In this document: positions 2,548 through 54,116 of the stretch, piece after piece
Layout: each line of letters begins with the position of its first letter
How positions within the stretch are numbered: position 1 is the first letter of the stretch
Origin: a virus
Taxonomy: Duplodnaviria; Caudoviricetes
Direction: 5' to 3' (one strand)
DNA length: 64,000 nucleotides
Virus record (IMG/VR): IMGVR_UViG_3300008262_000013
The notes under the pieces: model-generated
What the model saw: the letters and a program-made list of their open reading frames with translations, nothing else
Database searches by the model: none
What the model was told of the DNA's origin: nothing
Position numbers and translations under genes: made by a program

Positions 2548-2876
2548 TGAAGAAAAATTTTAAAAGTATTGTATCTATACCTATTAAAGTTGAGATGCAA
2601 CCAGTTGAACATCAAAGCAATAAAGTTTTGACTGTTGATGATTTGTCGAAACAAATAGAAGAAGCTAAAAAGGGAAAAGCCAAAGTCGATAGTAAGTATG
2701 TAGGATTTGAACTGACTGAGAGAGGACATTTATTCGAATATAAATTTGATTATGTTAAATTTTTGGACAATATGTCATTCATAATCAAAACGGCAAAACA
2801 GCGTAAAGAAATGAATCCTAATAATGTCTATACAATGGATAAAACTAAAAGTGCTAGACGAAAAAAAGAAATATGA
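2547..2876 (+). CDS. Hypothetical protein (109 aa, basic)
   Basis: Abuts or overlaps both neighbours (stop/start coupling); no recognisable motif. Confidence 0.65.
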   Translation: MKKNFKSIVSIPIKVEMQPVEHQSNKVLTVDDLSKQIEEAKKGKAKVDSKYVGFELTERGHLFEYKFDYVKFLDNMSFIIKTAKQRKEMNPNNVYTMDKTKSARRKKEI

Positions 2877-3766
2877 ACGCCGAAACTTTCAAAAAAAAGT
2901 ATCCTCAAATAAATTTTTATGTAGGACATGAAACGGATAAAACTGTAACTAAAGATTCGGGAGTAAATGTATTATATTTCACAAATAAATGTAATTTAGC
3001 TTGTACATATTGTTATGAAGATTTGCCTGGTCGCCCTCCACAAATTTTGTCTAAAGAAGATATTAAAAAAAGTATCGATAGAGTTATAGAAAGAGAAGAT
3101 CCCAATAGTCAAACATTATTTGTTCTTTTTGGTGGAGAAGCTACTATGGAATGGGATAATGTTTGTTATGCCATGAATTATGCCTATACAAAAAAGAAAA
3201 ATGTTCATTTTAATTTAAACACAAATGGCATAAGATACCTAAAACAAAGTTTTATAGAGGAAACAAAAAACAATTTTTTTTATAAAAAAAACTTGTTAAG
3301 TATAGACGTTAGTTTTGACGGTATAGGAAATTCGGATAGAGTCACACACGGCGGCAAGGATTCAACTAATTTAATGATCCAAGTTTTCAGAAATTTGAGA
3401 AAAAACGCAATGAAATTTAGGATAAGATACACCATACATCACAAAAACGTTCATAATTGCTATGAAGATATGTCCAATATTATTAGATATTTTAAACCAA
3501 CCCGTCTTATAACATCCGTTGCGTGGGAAACTCTCAATAAAATTCAAATTGACTTGCTCCAAAACATGAAAGAAAGTCTCAGGAAAGATTGGATAAATAG
3601 GATAATTGATGTTCCAGTTTGTGAGTTATTTTGTGACATGTGTGATGGATGTGGTGAGAGAAAGGAAGTAAAAACTTATTTTACTGACGAGGGTAATGTA
3701 ACCACATATGGTAATTATGAGAACTCCCCGAAATTTCATGATTTTAAAGAAAAGGTAATAATATGA
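2873..3766 (+). CDS. Radical SAM enzyme (anSME-like core, reduced C-terminal Cys cluster)
   Basis: CNLACTYC, LFGGEA, SFDG motif, and C-terminal CELFCDMCDGC. Confidence 0.9.
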   Translation: MNAETFKKKYPQINFYVGHETDKTVTKDSGVNVLYFTNKCNLACTYCYEDLPGRPPQILSKEDIKKSIDRVIEREDPNSQTLFVLFGGEATMEWDNVCYAMNYAYTKKKNVHFNLNTNGIRYLKQSFIEETKNNFFYKKNLLSIDVSFDGIGNSDRVTHGGKDSTNLMIQVFRNLRKNAMKFRIRYTIHHKNVHNCYEDMSNIIRYFKPTRLITSVAWETLNKIQIDLLQNMKESLRKDWINRIIDVPVCELFCDMCDGCGERKEVKTYFTDEGNVTTYGNYENSPKFHDFKEKVII

Positions 3767-4155
3767 GCACTGATAGAGAAATTGTAATTGAAAAGTTAAC
3801 GAGTATTTCACAAAATATTAAAGAGATATCGGAATATGATGAAGGCCTCGCCAACTTAATTTGGATAGGTTTTGACACAGCTATGAGTTTAGCACAATCT
3901 ATTTCTGAAAATAATGAGAAAAAGGAACAAATTGATATTTCTGTTTACATTCAACAAATTTGTGATGCTTTGGGTGTTGATATTGAACAAATGGTTTTAT
4001 CAATTATTCAAAATAACAATACTCAAGAATCTAGTAATAAAGAGCCGGACTTGGAAACTTTAGACTTTATAACATCCGATCTTGATGACTATGAAAAGTT
4101 TTTAGCAAAAAGTTCAGCAAAAAATAATTTAGATTTTTTATCAAAGGAAATATAA
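3763..4155 (+). CDS. Hypothetical acidic helical protein (130 aa)
   Basis: 4-nt overlap with the upstream rSAM; ends 1 nt before the Cys-repeat gene; no recognisable motif. Confidence 0.65.
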   Translation: MSTDREIVIEKLTSISQNIKEISEYDEGLANLIWIGFDTAMSLAQSISENNEKKEQIDISVYIQQICDALGVDIEQMVLSIIQNNNTQESSNKEPDLETLDFITSDLDDYEKFLAKSSAKNNLDFLSKEI

Positions 4156-4156
4156 G

Positions 4157-4765
4157 ATGGCTTTAGGTAAAATGTTTGACACTACTCTTGGAGTAGGTAC
4201 TAACACAACTCCTGCTGGTGAACATAAAAGGCTATCAATAACTATACAAGGAACTGTTGGTAGTAATGCAGTGAATTATGATCTTGCGAATGTTGTAGCT
4301 GGAGAGGATTTAATAACTAGATCGTTTTTTCAATCGCTGCTTGATAAAGCAAAAGAAGAAAATACGAGAAGGGGAGGCAGCGCCACTAAAGGTTCGTTAT
4401 CAACAACAAACATTAGAGCTGCCGACTTTAATAATATCCGAGCACTTTTTGCTGTTGCCGATTCTAGGACAAATCAAGTTTATAATGATTGGTCTGGTGC
4501 AAATGCTAATTTGCCTAATGGTCCGACAGTAAATAGTCCCACAATAACAACCTTTCCTACTACTGCTGCACCAACTGGTGTTCCAGCAGCAGTTACCACA
4601 GATCCAGCAACTCAAATTAGAGCTACAATTCTGAATTCTCTCATTAATGCTTTGAATTCTGCTGGGCAAGTTTGCACCTGTAATTGTAATTATTGTACTT
4701 GTAATTGCAATTATTGTACATGTAACTGTAATTACGCATGTACCTGCAACTGTAATTACTCCTAA
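4157..4765 (+). CDS. Putative modified-substrate/precursor protein with C-terminal (CTCNCNY)x4 repeat; N-terminal part virion-protein-like
   Basis: Ends ...QVCTCNCNYCTCNCNYCTCNCNYACTCNCNYS*, with 12 Cys in the last 30 aa and none elsewhere. AAGGA RBS upstream. Embedded among radical SAM genes. Confidence 0.75.
   Translation: MALGKMFDTTLGVGTNTTPAGEHKRLSITIQGTVGSNAVNYDLANVVAGEDLITRSFFQSLLDKAKEENTRRGGSATKGSLSTTNIRAADFNNIRALFAVADSRTNQVYNDWSGANANLPNGPTVNSPTITTFPTTAAPTGVPAAVTTDPATQIRATILNSLINALNSAGQVCTCNCNYCTCNCNYCTCNCNYACTCNCNYS
4673..4759 (+). repeat. Four 21-nt coding repeats encoding CTCNCNY
   Basis: tgcacctgtaattgtaattat / tgtacttgtaattgcaattat / tgtacatgtaactgtaattac / (gca) / tgtacctgcaactgtaattac; all differences are synonymous. 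Confidence 0.97.
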
Positions 4766-4776
4766 TTAAAAATATT

Positions 4777-5238
4777 ATGTTTTTTCAACTAAATCATTTA
4801 GAAGAAACCAATATGTCTTACATAAGACATTTTAATCATGGAATAAGATTGGGATCTTGGTTATTTTTGTGTTCCATCATTTTTTTAATTTATTGTCTTT
4901 TCTCTTTAAAATTTTTAGAAAACTTTGTGATAGCACGAATAAACACAATGTATCATGGATTAATGTTGCGATGGTTTGAAGATGAAACATTTAATCGTGG
5001 AAAACCAGAAAAAGATGTTTTAGAAGAAAAGAAATATAAAAAGCAGTATGTAAAATTGATCGAAGATGGAATGATAAATCCTTTCAATAAAGTTAAAATA
5101 TTTAATGGACTGTTAATTGCATCCATTACTAGTATAACACATTCTTTTATACCACAAATATTTGTGCATCATGCTGCCACCAATGTAATAAGATTATATT
5201 TTAATTATAAAATAATGGAGAAATTAAATGAAAAATGA
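4777..5238 (+). CDS. DUF6356-like small membrane-associated protein with internal insertion
   Basis: N-terminal NHLEETNMSYIRHF and C-terminal HSFIPQIF...AATNVIRL resemble the two halves of the DUF6356 pattern (H...E.Y..H / HA..P.LF...AS..I..L); recognised by eye. Confidence 0.45.
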   Translation: MFFQLNHLEETNMSYIRHFNHGIRLGSWLFLCSIIFLIYCLFSLKFLENFVIARINTMYHGLMLRWFEDETFNRGKPEKDVLEEKKYKKQYVKLIEDGMINPFNKVKIFNGLLIASITSITHSFIPQIFVHHAATNVIRLYFNYKIMEKLNEK

Positions 5239-5632
5239 TAGAGTTGAAATTGAAGGTATTGATGCGAATACTTATGCTGGAAAAGCAATTAATGCATGTA
5301 AGTTAAAAGCAAGAGGAATTTTTGGAGATGAACTTTTAACTTTTAAACTTTTGGATTTTGTAAGTTTTTTAATGTTAAATAATGAATTTACGTCAAAAGG
5401 TTATTTTATTAGTGAACATAATAGGGAAGAAATTTATATAAAAATTATAGAAACTGGTGATATACAATTAATAAATGATTTGGAAAAATATATTAATCTT
5501 AGAGATTCTATAAAAGAATTACAAAGAAAAAAAGATGAATTTTACGATATTATTGAAAAATTAAATAATTTATCAAACTTGAATGATGAAACGAGTGTTA
5601 ATGAAATTGTAGAGTCTTATCTAAGGAGATAA
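5228..5632 (+). CDS. Hypothetical protein (134 aa)
   Basis: Coupled ORF in the operon; no recognisable motif. Confidence 0.65.
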   Translation: MKNDRVEIEGIDANTYAGKAINACKLKARGIFGDELLTFKLLDFVSFLMLNNEFTSKGYFISEHNREEIYIKIIETGDIQLINDLEKYINLRDSIKELQRKKDEFYDIIEKLNNLSNLNDETSVNEIVESYLRR

Positions 5633-6631: not shown

Positions 6632-7510
6632 GTGTCTTTAGTAAATCTGAGAAACTATGATTTAGTTATAACTACTTCATTTGGTTTCAAATTTGGAATT
6701 TGTGGTCATTTATTTGAAATGATTGAATATTATTGGGCTATAAAAAATTGGACAAATCTAAATCCTTGTATACTATTGTCCGATGGTACTACAATAGACG
6801 AATTTAATATAGCTTTAAACACGAAATATGATAATCTAGTTGTTGAAAATTTAATATACCATCCTTTTCCAAAACTATTATTGTCAAAAAATTTATTGAT
6901 AGTTGACGGATCTTCAAGACTTGATAATTCGGAAATATATACAGATAATTTTTTTCTATTCAGATGTCATGAAAAAAATTATGACTTTTATATAAACAAT
7001 AAAGCGCAATGTCACTTATTTCAAGATTTTGAAATATATGATGATATTCCTAAAAAAATAAATGTTTTTGATTATAAGAAAAAATTATTATATTCAAAAT
7101 TTAAAAAAATAAATGATGATGTAGAAAATTCTGTAATGTTTTATTTGACAGATGTTAGTAGATTTATGTCTGAAGAAACAATAACTGAAATTTCCAATAA
7201 ATATTCTTTCAACAACACAGTAGTATTTACAAATAAACCAGAACTTTATACAAAAATAAAAACATATAAAGTTCCAGTCCCAGACATGTGGAATAAATTT
7301 TCTACATATGTTTATACTAAATTACCTGGCAAAAAAGATTGTTCCAATAGATTTATTTTAGAGTGTATGCACTATGATAAAGAAGTTGTTTATGATATAG
7401 ATTATTATGATAAAGCTTTAGAAATTAGAAAAAAGGATGGAATAAAAAATACATCTTTAGAACAAGGTGATTTTTTTATCAATTATATCAATGAACAAAT
7501 TAAGTGTTAA
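6632..7510 (+). CDS. Hypothetical protein, possibly degenerate GT-B glycosyltransferase-like
   Basis: 292-aa ORF; C-terminal DCSNRFILECMHYDKEVVY loosely resembles the GT-B E...G.PV segment. Confidence 0.35.
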   Translation: MSLVNLRNYDLVITTSFGFKFGICGHLFEMIEYYWAIKNWTNLNPCILLSDGTTIDEFNIALNTKYDNLVVENLIYHPFPKLLLSKNLLIVDGSSRLDNSEIYTDNFFLFRCHEKNYDFYINNKAQCHLFQDFEIYDDIPKKINVFDYKKKLLYSKFKKINDDVENSVMFYLTDVSRFMSEETITEISNKYSFNNTVVFTNKPELYTKIKTYKVPVPDMWNKFSTYVYTKLPGKKDCSNRFILECMHYDKEVVYDIDYYDKALEIRKKDGIKNTSLEQGDFFINYINEQIKC

Positions 7511-54108: not shown

Positions 54109-54116
54109 TATAAATA
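54109..54116 (+). promoter_or_regulatory. Perfect T4 late promoter TATAAATA upstream of gp22
   Basis: Exact TATAAATA in the gp21-gp22 intergenic region, followed by AAGGAG RBS. Confidence 0.85.

Follow-up and report, generated by a model that had tools for sequence, protein, structure and literature searches.

The stretch of viral DNA analyzed here, 64,000 nucleotides of the Caudoviricetes record IMGVR_UViG_3300008262_000013 (hereafter the window), carries at 4157–4765 on the plus strand an open reading frame (ORF) whose product ends in a run of cysteine heptads and which lies downstream of a group of radical S-adenosylmethionine (rSAM) enzyme genes. Translation gave a stop-free protein of 202 aa, the C-terminal end of which reads QVCTCNCNYCTCNCNYCTCNCNYACTCNCNYS before the stop codon. 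The tail consists of three CTCNCNY heptads (nucleotides 4673–4735), an Ala spacer (4736–4738), a fourth heptad (4739–4759), and a single Ser, and all 12 Cys lie within residues 173–199. Six-frame and codon inspection showed that the four 21-nt copies vary at third codon positions only, every copy encoding CTCNCNY, and reading the whole window in six frames revealed no second array of such heptads. The N-terminal 172 aa contained no Cys and were rich in Thr (14%), Ala (12.8%), Asn (9.9%), and Gly (8.1%). A Shine-Dalgarno-like AAGGAAA precedes the ATG of the heptad gene, which starts 1 nt after the preceding ORF within a run of genes joined by overlaps or by gaps of at most 11 nt; the genes of this cassette are translationally coupled.

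An AlphaFold2 monomer model of the protein, built on a 79-sequence alignment, contained a moderately confident domain, with blocks of predicted local distance difference test (pLDDT) scores of 80–92 over most of residues 41–170 and helices at residues 55–71, 88–98, and 156–170; the heptads scored below 40. The N-terminal part (residues 1–172, the N-domain) is thus modeled as folded. Immediately before the heptads, the model and the family alignment predict an amphipathic helix at residues 153–170 (nucleotides 4613–4666, plus strand; consensus ITAxxINxLIxxxNxAG), which had a pLDDT of about 80–92 over residues 156–170 and in which I154, N160, and G170 were nearly invariant across the family. An earlier reading of this DNA made from the sequence alone (the first-pass annotation) had described four exact CTCNCNY heptads with one Ala offset and all 12 Cys in the tail, synonymous-only differences between the copies, a Cys-free Ala/Thr/Asn/Gly-rich N terminus of about 170 aa, and three helical segments; translation, codon positions, composition, and the modeled helices, respectively, bore these points out. 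The 202-aa protein had no match in Pfam or NCBIfam, precursor families included, and tblastn of the whole protein against cultured phages returned nothing, probably because of low-complexity masking and divergence of the N-domain.

Searching 5.8 billion proteins (E up to 0.001) returned 554 matches, none of them informatively named. Judged by sequence, the heptad pattern is far beyond chance, since 119 of the best 121 of these matches carried four C-x-C-N/D-C-N/D-Y/F heptads, likewise arranged 3+1 around one small spacer residue, while the N-terminal parts fell to 35–45% identity. When only the N-domain was searched against 1.8 billion cluster representatives, eight matches were found, almost all of them heptad proteins, so that the domain appears to be dedicated to this family. 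One weak match in that search was a 3090-aa protein (E 7.6e-4). The N-domain showed no similarity to the giant fiber proteins encoded in the window itself.

A repeat logo was then built from 388 units of 50 distinct proteins, each protein having 3 to 28 units. Cys1, Cys3, and Cys5 were invariant, position 4 was N/D/Q/E in 98% of units, position 6 was N/D in 96%, and position 7 was Y/F/H in 97%; position 2 was free (T, P, I, L, V, A). Heptads were also found inside proteins of 300–830 aa. Dispersed single CxC[N/D]x[N/D] units, which occurred in gp140 of Campylobacter phage CP220 and in an 832-aa protein of the gut phage L028, lacked Cys5 but retained Cys1, Cys3, and the two Asn/Asp. Codon inspection and the logo together mark (CTCNCNY)x3-Ala-CTCNCNY (4673–4759, plus strand) as the conserved module and presumed substrate site. 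A conserved Asn/Asp stands at i+3 of Cys1 and again at i+3 of Cys3, a pairing that by analogy would correspond to the donor and acceptor kinds of ranthipeptides, in which Cys is linked to Asp (PapB products) or to Asn (NxxC peptides).

Three C-terminal architectures were distinguished among the 121 best homologues: 22 end at the motif, as does the window protein, 57 have a conserved 12-residue tail (SDExxKxxxEYM-like, e.g., P0008 and P0025), and 42 have a longer tail that starts, after the last Tyr, like Peptidase_S74, a self-cleaving intramolecular chaperone known from tail fibers and endosialidases. In all five long-tail homologues scanned with Pfam (P0007, P0034, P0016, P0085, and P0045), position 1 of the Peptidase_S74 profile (PF13884) fell on the Ser that immediately follows the final heptad Tyr, and S74-bearing homologues have a Lys five residues after that Ser (Ser-x4-Lys dyad). 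The catalytic residues of T5 pb1, Ser1264 and Lys1269, are equally spaced, and cleavage occurs N-terminal to the Ser (PMC4690869), so mature S74-bearing members would end at ...CNCNY. By the same analogy, their heptad end would be the chaperone-proximal end of a trimer. The terminal Ser and stop codon of the window ORF (4760–4765, plus strand) occupy the place of the catalytic Ser of these homologues, and the window protein resembles a form from which the chaperone has been lost, its first Ser being kept. The 12-residue remnant retains the Ser and Lys of the catalytic dyad and nothing else of S74; it could be a docking tag or could rely on the chaperone of a paralogue in trans. Tandem heptad paralogues were seen as sets of four (L012/L047, 4721–7285), three (L014/L048; L005, 10001–11894), and two (L003, 9271–10582), with divergent N-domains, identical tails, and short-tail and S74-bearing forms mixed; they may represent heterotrimers or alternative fiber tips.

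The cassette around the heptad gene runs rSAM-A, rSAM-B, an extra compact rSAM gene, a 109-aa ORF, rSAM-C, a 130-aa ORF, the heptad gene, a DUF6356 ORF, and a 134-aa ORF. rSAM-A (3–563; this and all genes described below are on the plus strand) is cut by the window edge to the C-terminal 186 aa of a 368-aa rSAM/SPASM-variant enzyme and is 98% identical to the C-terminal part of the gene in locus L001. rSAM-B (573–1697) encodes a 374-aa enzyme with a complete seven-Cys SPASM motif, a candidate thioether maturase, and rSAM-C (2873–3766) encodes a 297-aa enzyme. Mutual identity of the three enzymes was 27–29%. The Pfam Radical_SAM domain (PF04055) was found in rSAM-B and rSAM-C, and CX3CX2C lies near the N terminus of rSAM-A (L001 copy), rSAM-B, and rSAM-C. 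In rSAM-B this motif is at residue 12, followed by CX9-15GX4C at 250, CX2CX5CX3C at 300, and a downstream Cys; rSAM-A has CX9-15GX4C with a spacing variant, CX2CX4CX2C, and the C-terminal cluster of rSAM-C is reduced to CX3CX2CX2C.

Linkage of heptad genes and rSAM genes was examined in both directions. In the forward direction, six of six contigs reached through homologous proteins (40–73% identity) shared one cassette in differing outer contexts, composed of a UDP-glucose-dehydrogenase-like gene, rSAM-A (368 aa), rSAM-B (374 aa), a small ORF, rSAM-C (~290 aa), a second small ORF, and one to three heptad genes. When IMG/VR was scanned for pairs of consecutive heptads without regard to neighboring genes, 21 loci were obtained, 13 of them with enough upstream flank. 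Homologues of both rSAM-A and rSAM-B stood beside the heptad gene in 13/13 of these evaluable loci, and rSAM-C in 10/13, including loci with rearranged gene order and enzymes 31–39% identical to those of the window. At locus L029, eight CTC[D/N]C[D/N]Y units were found with the rSAM pair 3 kb downstream. This contig (PAAV01000055.1, 161 kb, 35.5% GC), labeled as a Chloroflexota metagenome-assembled genome, encodes a 1662-aa giant protein and phage-like content; it appears to derive from a T4-like phage and to have been binned with a bacterium.

In the reverse direction, alignment of rSAM-B orthologues gave 80 viral loci. Leaving out three loci from Campylobacter phages and two with short flanks, the count covered 37 loci whose rSAM-B reached at least 37% identity. 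A Cys-repeat ORF lay within 10 kb, usually 1.5–4 kb, in 35 of the 37, with heptads in 34 and an octad variant in one. One of the two exceptions, L041, is identical to the positive 21-kb contig L043 except for a 284-bp deletion within the heptad gene (L043 12879–13162), reflecting either a naturally occurring knock-out or a collapse during assembly. Furthermore, remoter rSAM-B relatives (23–30% identity; loci L079, L085, L087–L094, L102–L104, L107, L109, L111, and L117) adjoin other Cys-periodic proteins, with CxCNxxC hexads or CXXX repeats such as CQVSCQSGCQISC, suggestive of a broader superfamily of Cys-periodic phage proteins that have SPASM partners. Sugar genes vary from cassette to cassette, and the rSAM pairing persists. 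These counts agree with the proposal of the first-pass annotation that the heptad protein is a candidate substrate and mark it as the evident dedicated partner of the neighboring rSAM/SPASM enzymes, the pairing being conserved over deep divergence in both directions. Homologues commonly standing without rSAM neighbors, which that annotation had said would speak against the proposal, were not what the two counts revealed in aquatic phages. Its suggestion of halogenation or Tyr cross-linking, however, found no footing: nothing ties such activities to the heptad protein, and they are absent from the minimal conserved cassette.

The same gene neighborhoods bear on whether the heptads are modified at all. 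His-coordinated metal sites have been reported in T4 fiber tips, and the heptads might likewise form an unmodified metal-thiolate or disulfide zipper at the fiber end, the rSAM genes serving adjacent sugar or other pathways. The cassette is indeed embedded among genes for a glycosyltransferase (GT2), epimerases, a deacetylase, and compact rSAM enzymes, one heptad protein (L028) has no rSAM gene nearby, and one enzyme homologue of CP220 is distant from gp140. Yet the two-way linkage survives rearrangement and enzyme identities of only 31–39% while the sugar genes vary, rSAM-A, -B, and -C resemble peptide maturases rather than sugar-modifying enzymes, and the remoter rSAM-B relatives again stand beside Cys-periodic proteins. 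An unmodified zipper is therefore considered unlikely.

The relationships of the enzymes point to a kind of chemistry. For all three, the best NCBIfam model was that of the ranthipeptide maturase PapB, with 132 bits over the whole model for rSAM-B, 78 for rSAM-A, and 79.9 for rSAM-C, followed by nif11-type, SCIFF, QhpD, and other peptide maturase models. The closest solved structure was likewise the same for all three, 5WGG/5WHY (E 6.7e-18 for rSAM-B and 8.7e-8 for rSAM-C), the structure of the SCIFF thioether maturase CteB. The alignments begin at CteB residues 100–102 and at residues 5–7 (rSAM-A and rSAM-B) or 33 (rSAM-C) of the phage enzymes; with a start at about CteB residue 101, the phage enzymes lack its N-terminal peptide-recognition domain (RRE). 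The first-pass annotation's assignment to maturases of this type is consistent with both results, as PapB and CteB, the nearest relatives in NCBIfam and the Protein Data Bank (PDB), are Cys-thioether maturases. Gut contigs named "Bacteriophage sp.", matched by rSAM-B at 24–27% identity, were considered as further heptad systems and ruled out, being plain pairs of SCIFF peptide and maturase. In three of these from human feces (L034–L036; MT835702, MT836452, and MT836133), the SCIFF precursor lies beside its maturase, and the contigs may be bacterial fragments rather than phages. The matches to plain SCIFF pairs independently place the enzyme near thioether formers.

A different radical chemistry acting on the same heptads, other than Cys-to-Asn/Asp thioether formation, was also weighed: formylglycine formation of the anaerobic sulfatase type, sactionine links to C-alpha, C-C or C-O links to Tyr of the cyclophane or darobactin type, or inter-chain links within a trimer. 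It would accommodate the scores, which lie below every family cut-off and extend to anSME, YhhB/AmcB cyclophane, DynA, and QhpD models (E 1e-10 to 1e-22), as well as the 97% conservation of an aromatic position 7 and the presence of three enzymes distinct enough to suggest more than one reaction. PapB and CteB, both formers of Cys thioethers, nevertheless give the best matches and the only full-length ones, and the invariant residues are Cys together with Asn/Asp, the donor and acceptor types of ranthipeptides. We thus regard another chemistry as improbable.

Evidence from cultured phages came from Campylobacter. The profile of phrog_26958, the CP220 gp140 family, matched residues 154–201 of the window protein (helix plus heptads) at its positions 272–318 of 534 (E 1.8e-10); by this alignment, the window protein shares a module with phrog_26958 and is not a member of the same protein family. 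CP220 gp140 (534 aa) has the same helix followed by seven consecutive C-x-C-D/N-C-N-Y units, six of which are annotated in the CP220 record as a 21-bp repeat. A homologue of rSAM-A, 28.5% identical over 361 residues (full length), is encoded 2.2 kb downstream of gp140. In the CP220 genome paper of 2010, the 11–12 rSAM genes figured as an oddity of metabolism, and the 21-bp repeat inside a gene as an unconnected curiosity (PMC2853527). Gene 3-9 of the related phage IBB_35 (1605 bp, 60.3 kDa) carries the same heptads in its sequence, and its product was among 38 proteins identified by electrospray ionization tandem mass spectrometry in purified virions, at 2.6% coverage (PMC3322345 supplement); this virion detection of a Campylobacter-phage heptad protein is taken from that paper and is not a result of the present analysis. 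Near the portal gene, small ORFs with period-3 Cys runs (CKNCINCSNCKNC...) were also noticed in CP220 (gp032, L072 17842–18213) and as equivalents in CP21 (L073), about 7 kb from the rSAM-B homologue.

The virion detection bears on two further explanations. In the first, the system would be a classical ribosomally synthesized peptide that is modified post-translationally (RiPP), with the 172-aa N-terminal part as leader and the modified 30-residue core released as an antimicrobial, signal, or metallophore. Enzymes of the RiPP-maturase type and tandem heptad paralogues (up to four), which are frequent among RiPP precursors, would fit. The conservation is reversed, however, with an invariant "core" and a variable "leader"; moreover, the N-domain is modeled as folded, heptads occur inside 300–830-aa proteins and directly before S74 chaperones, profile searches recognized no leader peptidase or exporter in the cassette, and virions contained the IBB_35 heptad protein. 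A released peptide is thus very unlikely. In the second, the Cys-rich tail would be an Fe-S cluster scaffold or carrier supplying the many rSAM enzymes of the phage, of which the window encodes at least seven within 13 kb. Fusion to S74, occurrence in large virion-region proteins, unit numbers from 3 to 28, conservation of Asn/Asp and an aromatic residue, and again the virion detection argue against this role, to which we give hardly any credence.

Taken together, we lean, by a modest degree, toward the heptad ORF encoding a small fiber-type virion protein whose helix-heptad tail is the dedicated substrate of rSAM-A and rSAM-B, usually with rSAM-C, and becomes thioether stapled. The narrower proposition, that the heptad tail is a substrate of the adjacent enzymes, is probable on the linkage data. 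In the mechanism proposed, the enzymes would recognize the helix-heptad module, remove a hydrogen from an acceptor residue, and link that residue to a Cys sulfur, the most likely course by analogy with PapB, CteB, and QhpD; Asn/Asp at i+3 of Cys1 and Cys3 would be the best candidate acceptors. The tail would become a ladder of thioether staples, formed in the reducing cytoplasm where disulfides cannot form, and thereby a redox-independent, rigid end piece. In S74-bearing relatives, this end piece would be exposed once the chaperone cuts itself off; the window protein, presumably a virion component, would have lost that chaperone and retained only its first Ser. The first-pass annotation had offered two alternatives, a long-leader precursor or a structural protein with a cross-linked tail. 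The second fits much better than the first, because the tail is invariant, the N-domain is variable and modeled as folded, S74-like tails occur in 42/121 homologues, and a heptad protein was detected in virions. Whether the reading extends to several tailed-phage lineages (T4-like phages from aquatic habitats, the Firehammerviruses of Campylobacter, and others), each stapling Cys-heptad modules of its own fiber or virion proteins by RiPP-type rSAM/SPASM enzymes, is about evenly balanced.

Several observations weigh against a thioether-stapled fiber protein. The curated NCBIfam cut-offs are far from reached, with PapB scores of 132, 78, and 80 against 340 bits and an SCIFF maturase score of 87 against 425; since all three enzymes fall far below every named family cut-off, their reaction may differ. 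No RRE was found in the three enzymes and no stand-alone RRE was identified, the AlphaFold2 model of the 109-aa ORF being too poor for this purpose (mean pLDDT 53). The gut phage L028 encodes a heptad protein without an rSAM gene in the 12.5 kb examined, and the rSAM-B homologue of CP220 (37%), which adjoins a UDP-glucose-dehydrogenase-like gene, is about 33 kb from gp140. The aquatic loci belong for the most part to related T4-like phages, and some of their synteny is therefore shared descent. The protein detected in virions is a distant one that shares only the helix-heptad module, at 2.6% peptide coverage. As for the window protein itself, Pfam detected no S74 domain, the protein ending at the Ser, and Foldseek searches of PDB, BFVD, and VIA-align wide with the monomer model gave weak unspecific matches only (best Z 6.1), with no known fold or fiber fold for the N-domain. 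Finally, support for cross-linking comes from gene linkage and enzyme homology, and from these we infer the chemistry.

The window as a whole is strand-uniform DNA of a T4-like myophage, encoding terminase, sheath, portal, scaffold, major head protein, the neck proteins gp13/gp14, and helicase, with core genes about 66% identical at the DNA level to those of Pelagibacter phage Mosig and marine cyanomyophages. The heptad cassette is located upstream of genes for two giant tail-fiber-like proteins (1756 and 3128 aa) and a Gly-rich fiber-like protein, immediately before gp13/gp14. A study of pelagimyophages named the same genomic position the host recognition cluster and mentioned rSAM cassettes without analyzing them (PMC7029224). 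The extra compact rSAM gene (1657–2547; 296 aa, Pfam Radical_SAM) lies outside the conserved core, overlaps rSAM-B by 41 nt, and occurs at that position only in the closest relatives, L023 and L025, being absent from most cassettes; paralogues of it are found further downstream in other cassettes. The 109-aa ORF between rSAM-B and rSAM-C (2547–2876) recurs at its position in 11 loci, 19 of its residues being invariant, and profile searches found no family match for it. The acidic 130-aa ORF immediately upstream of the heptad gene (3763–4155), with homologues of 35–73% identity there in most cassettes, had no credible family match. A conserved 134-aa ORF (5228–5632; phrog_25260) follows heptad genes even in remote cassettes, and a conserved 292-aa ORF (6632–7510; phrog_24441) recurs in most cassettes. 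ESM Atlas queries with the 109-, 130-, and 134-aa ORFs yielded no usable match.

DNA nearly identical to window positions 3763–5632 (word share 0.99–1.00) was found in 18 runs from 14 studies (2017–2024), all of them possible sources, with labels of freshwater, lake-water, or "fungus" metagenomes. On account of these labels, the phage seems to be widespread in fresh water and not marine, though its nearest cultured relatives are marine. Metatranscriptome matches were limited to two runs with word shares of only 0.08–0.09 and gave no sign of expression. Promoter and terminator scans of the window gave counts no better than shuffles, and a word scan for the T4 late-promoter word TATAAATA found none in the cassette. 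In the entire 64 kb, TATAAATA is strongly avoided, with one copy against 13.3 expected from shuffles; this copy (54109–54116) is 23 nt upstream of the scaffold gene start (54139).

If a thioether-stapled virion protein is indeed made, rSAM thioether chemistry, to our knowledge so far restricted to small bacterial peptides and one dehydrogenase subunit, would also be used for building virus particles and would provide an enzymatic, redox-independent covalent hardening of them. It would give a function to the long-puzzling rSAM sets of Campylobacter and aquatic T4-like phages and explain their number, and the helix with its C-x-C-N/D-C-N/D-Y/F heptads would be established as a new conserved module at a likely host-contact end of the fiber. 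Protein engineers would also gain a compact staple that can be genetically encoded. Because cultured Campylobacter phages carry the system, the hypothesis is directly testable.

Full-text literature searches (motif; ranthipeptide or thioether with phage; SPASM with tail fiber; virion) found no such system described. The phage genes were set beside their nearest known counterparts. Like PapB/PapA (freyrasin) and CteB/CteA (SCIFF), they pair an rSAM/SPASM enzyme gene with a Cys-periodic product having Asp/Asn-type acceptors. The phage enzymes, however, score far below the cut-offs and have no N-terminal RRE as in CteB; the substrate is a 202-aa protein (elsewhere up to 832 aa) with a predicted folded N-domain rather than a 45-aa peptide, and the repeat is a three-Cys heptad rather than CX3D. 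Moreover, phage homologues are fused to an S74 chaperone, the host genome is viral, and the product is probably retained in the particle. Ranthipeptide precursors are short, with a conserved leader and a Cys-rich core, whereas here a variable, apparently folded N-domain precedes an invariant tail.

A parallel in the fate of the product is QhpD, a SPASM rSAM enzyme that forms Cys-to-Asp/Glu thioethers in the small subunit (QhpC) of quinohemoprotein amine dehydrogenase, a protein that stays in its assembly. The QhpD model is among the top NCBIfam matches of the phage enzymes, although its scores (TIGR03906; 77.8, 53.4, and 52.2 bits) are well short of the cut-off of 453, and the phage system differs in its repetitive substrate, its viral setting, and the absence of a dehydrogenase context. 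With S74 fibers and spikes such as K1F endosialidase and T5 pb1, the family shares the S74-like tail after the last heptad in 42/121 homologues, and this placement implies a trimeric fiber whose mature C terminus would be the heptad module; the window protein differs in having the Ser only, and 57/121 homologues in keeping the 12-residue remnant. We know of no S74 fiber with a Cys-heptad module or rSAM partners. A further likeness is CP220 gp140 and the product of IBB_35 gene 3-9, with the helix-heptad module (CTC[D/N]CNY units), rSAM-A and -B homologues in the genome, and detection in virions; compared with the window protein, a gp140-type protein is longer (534 aa), has internal heptads plus dispersed single units, and has an unrelated N-terminal part. 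Thus, an rSAM/SPASM maturase with a Cys-rich substrate is the known part of this system, and the substrate class, the logic of the S74 fusion, and the virion-protein setting are what is new.

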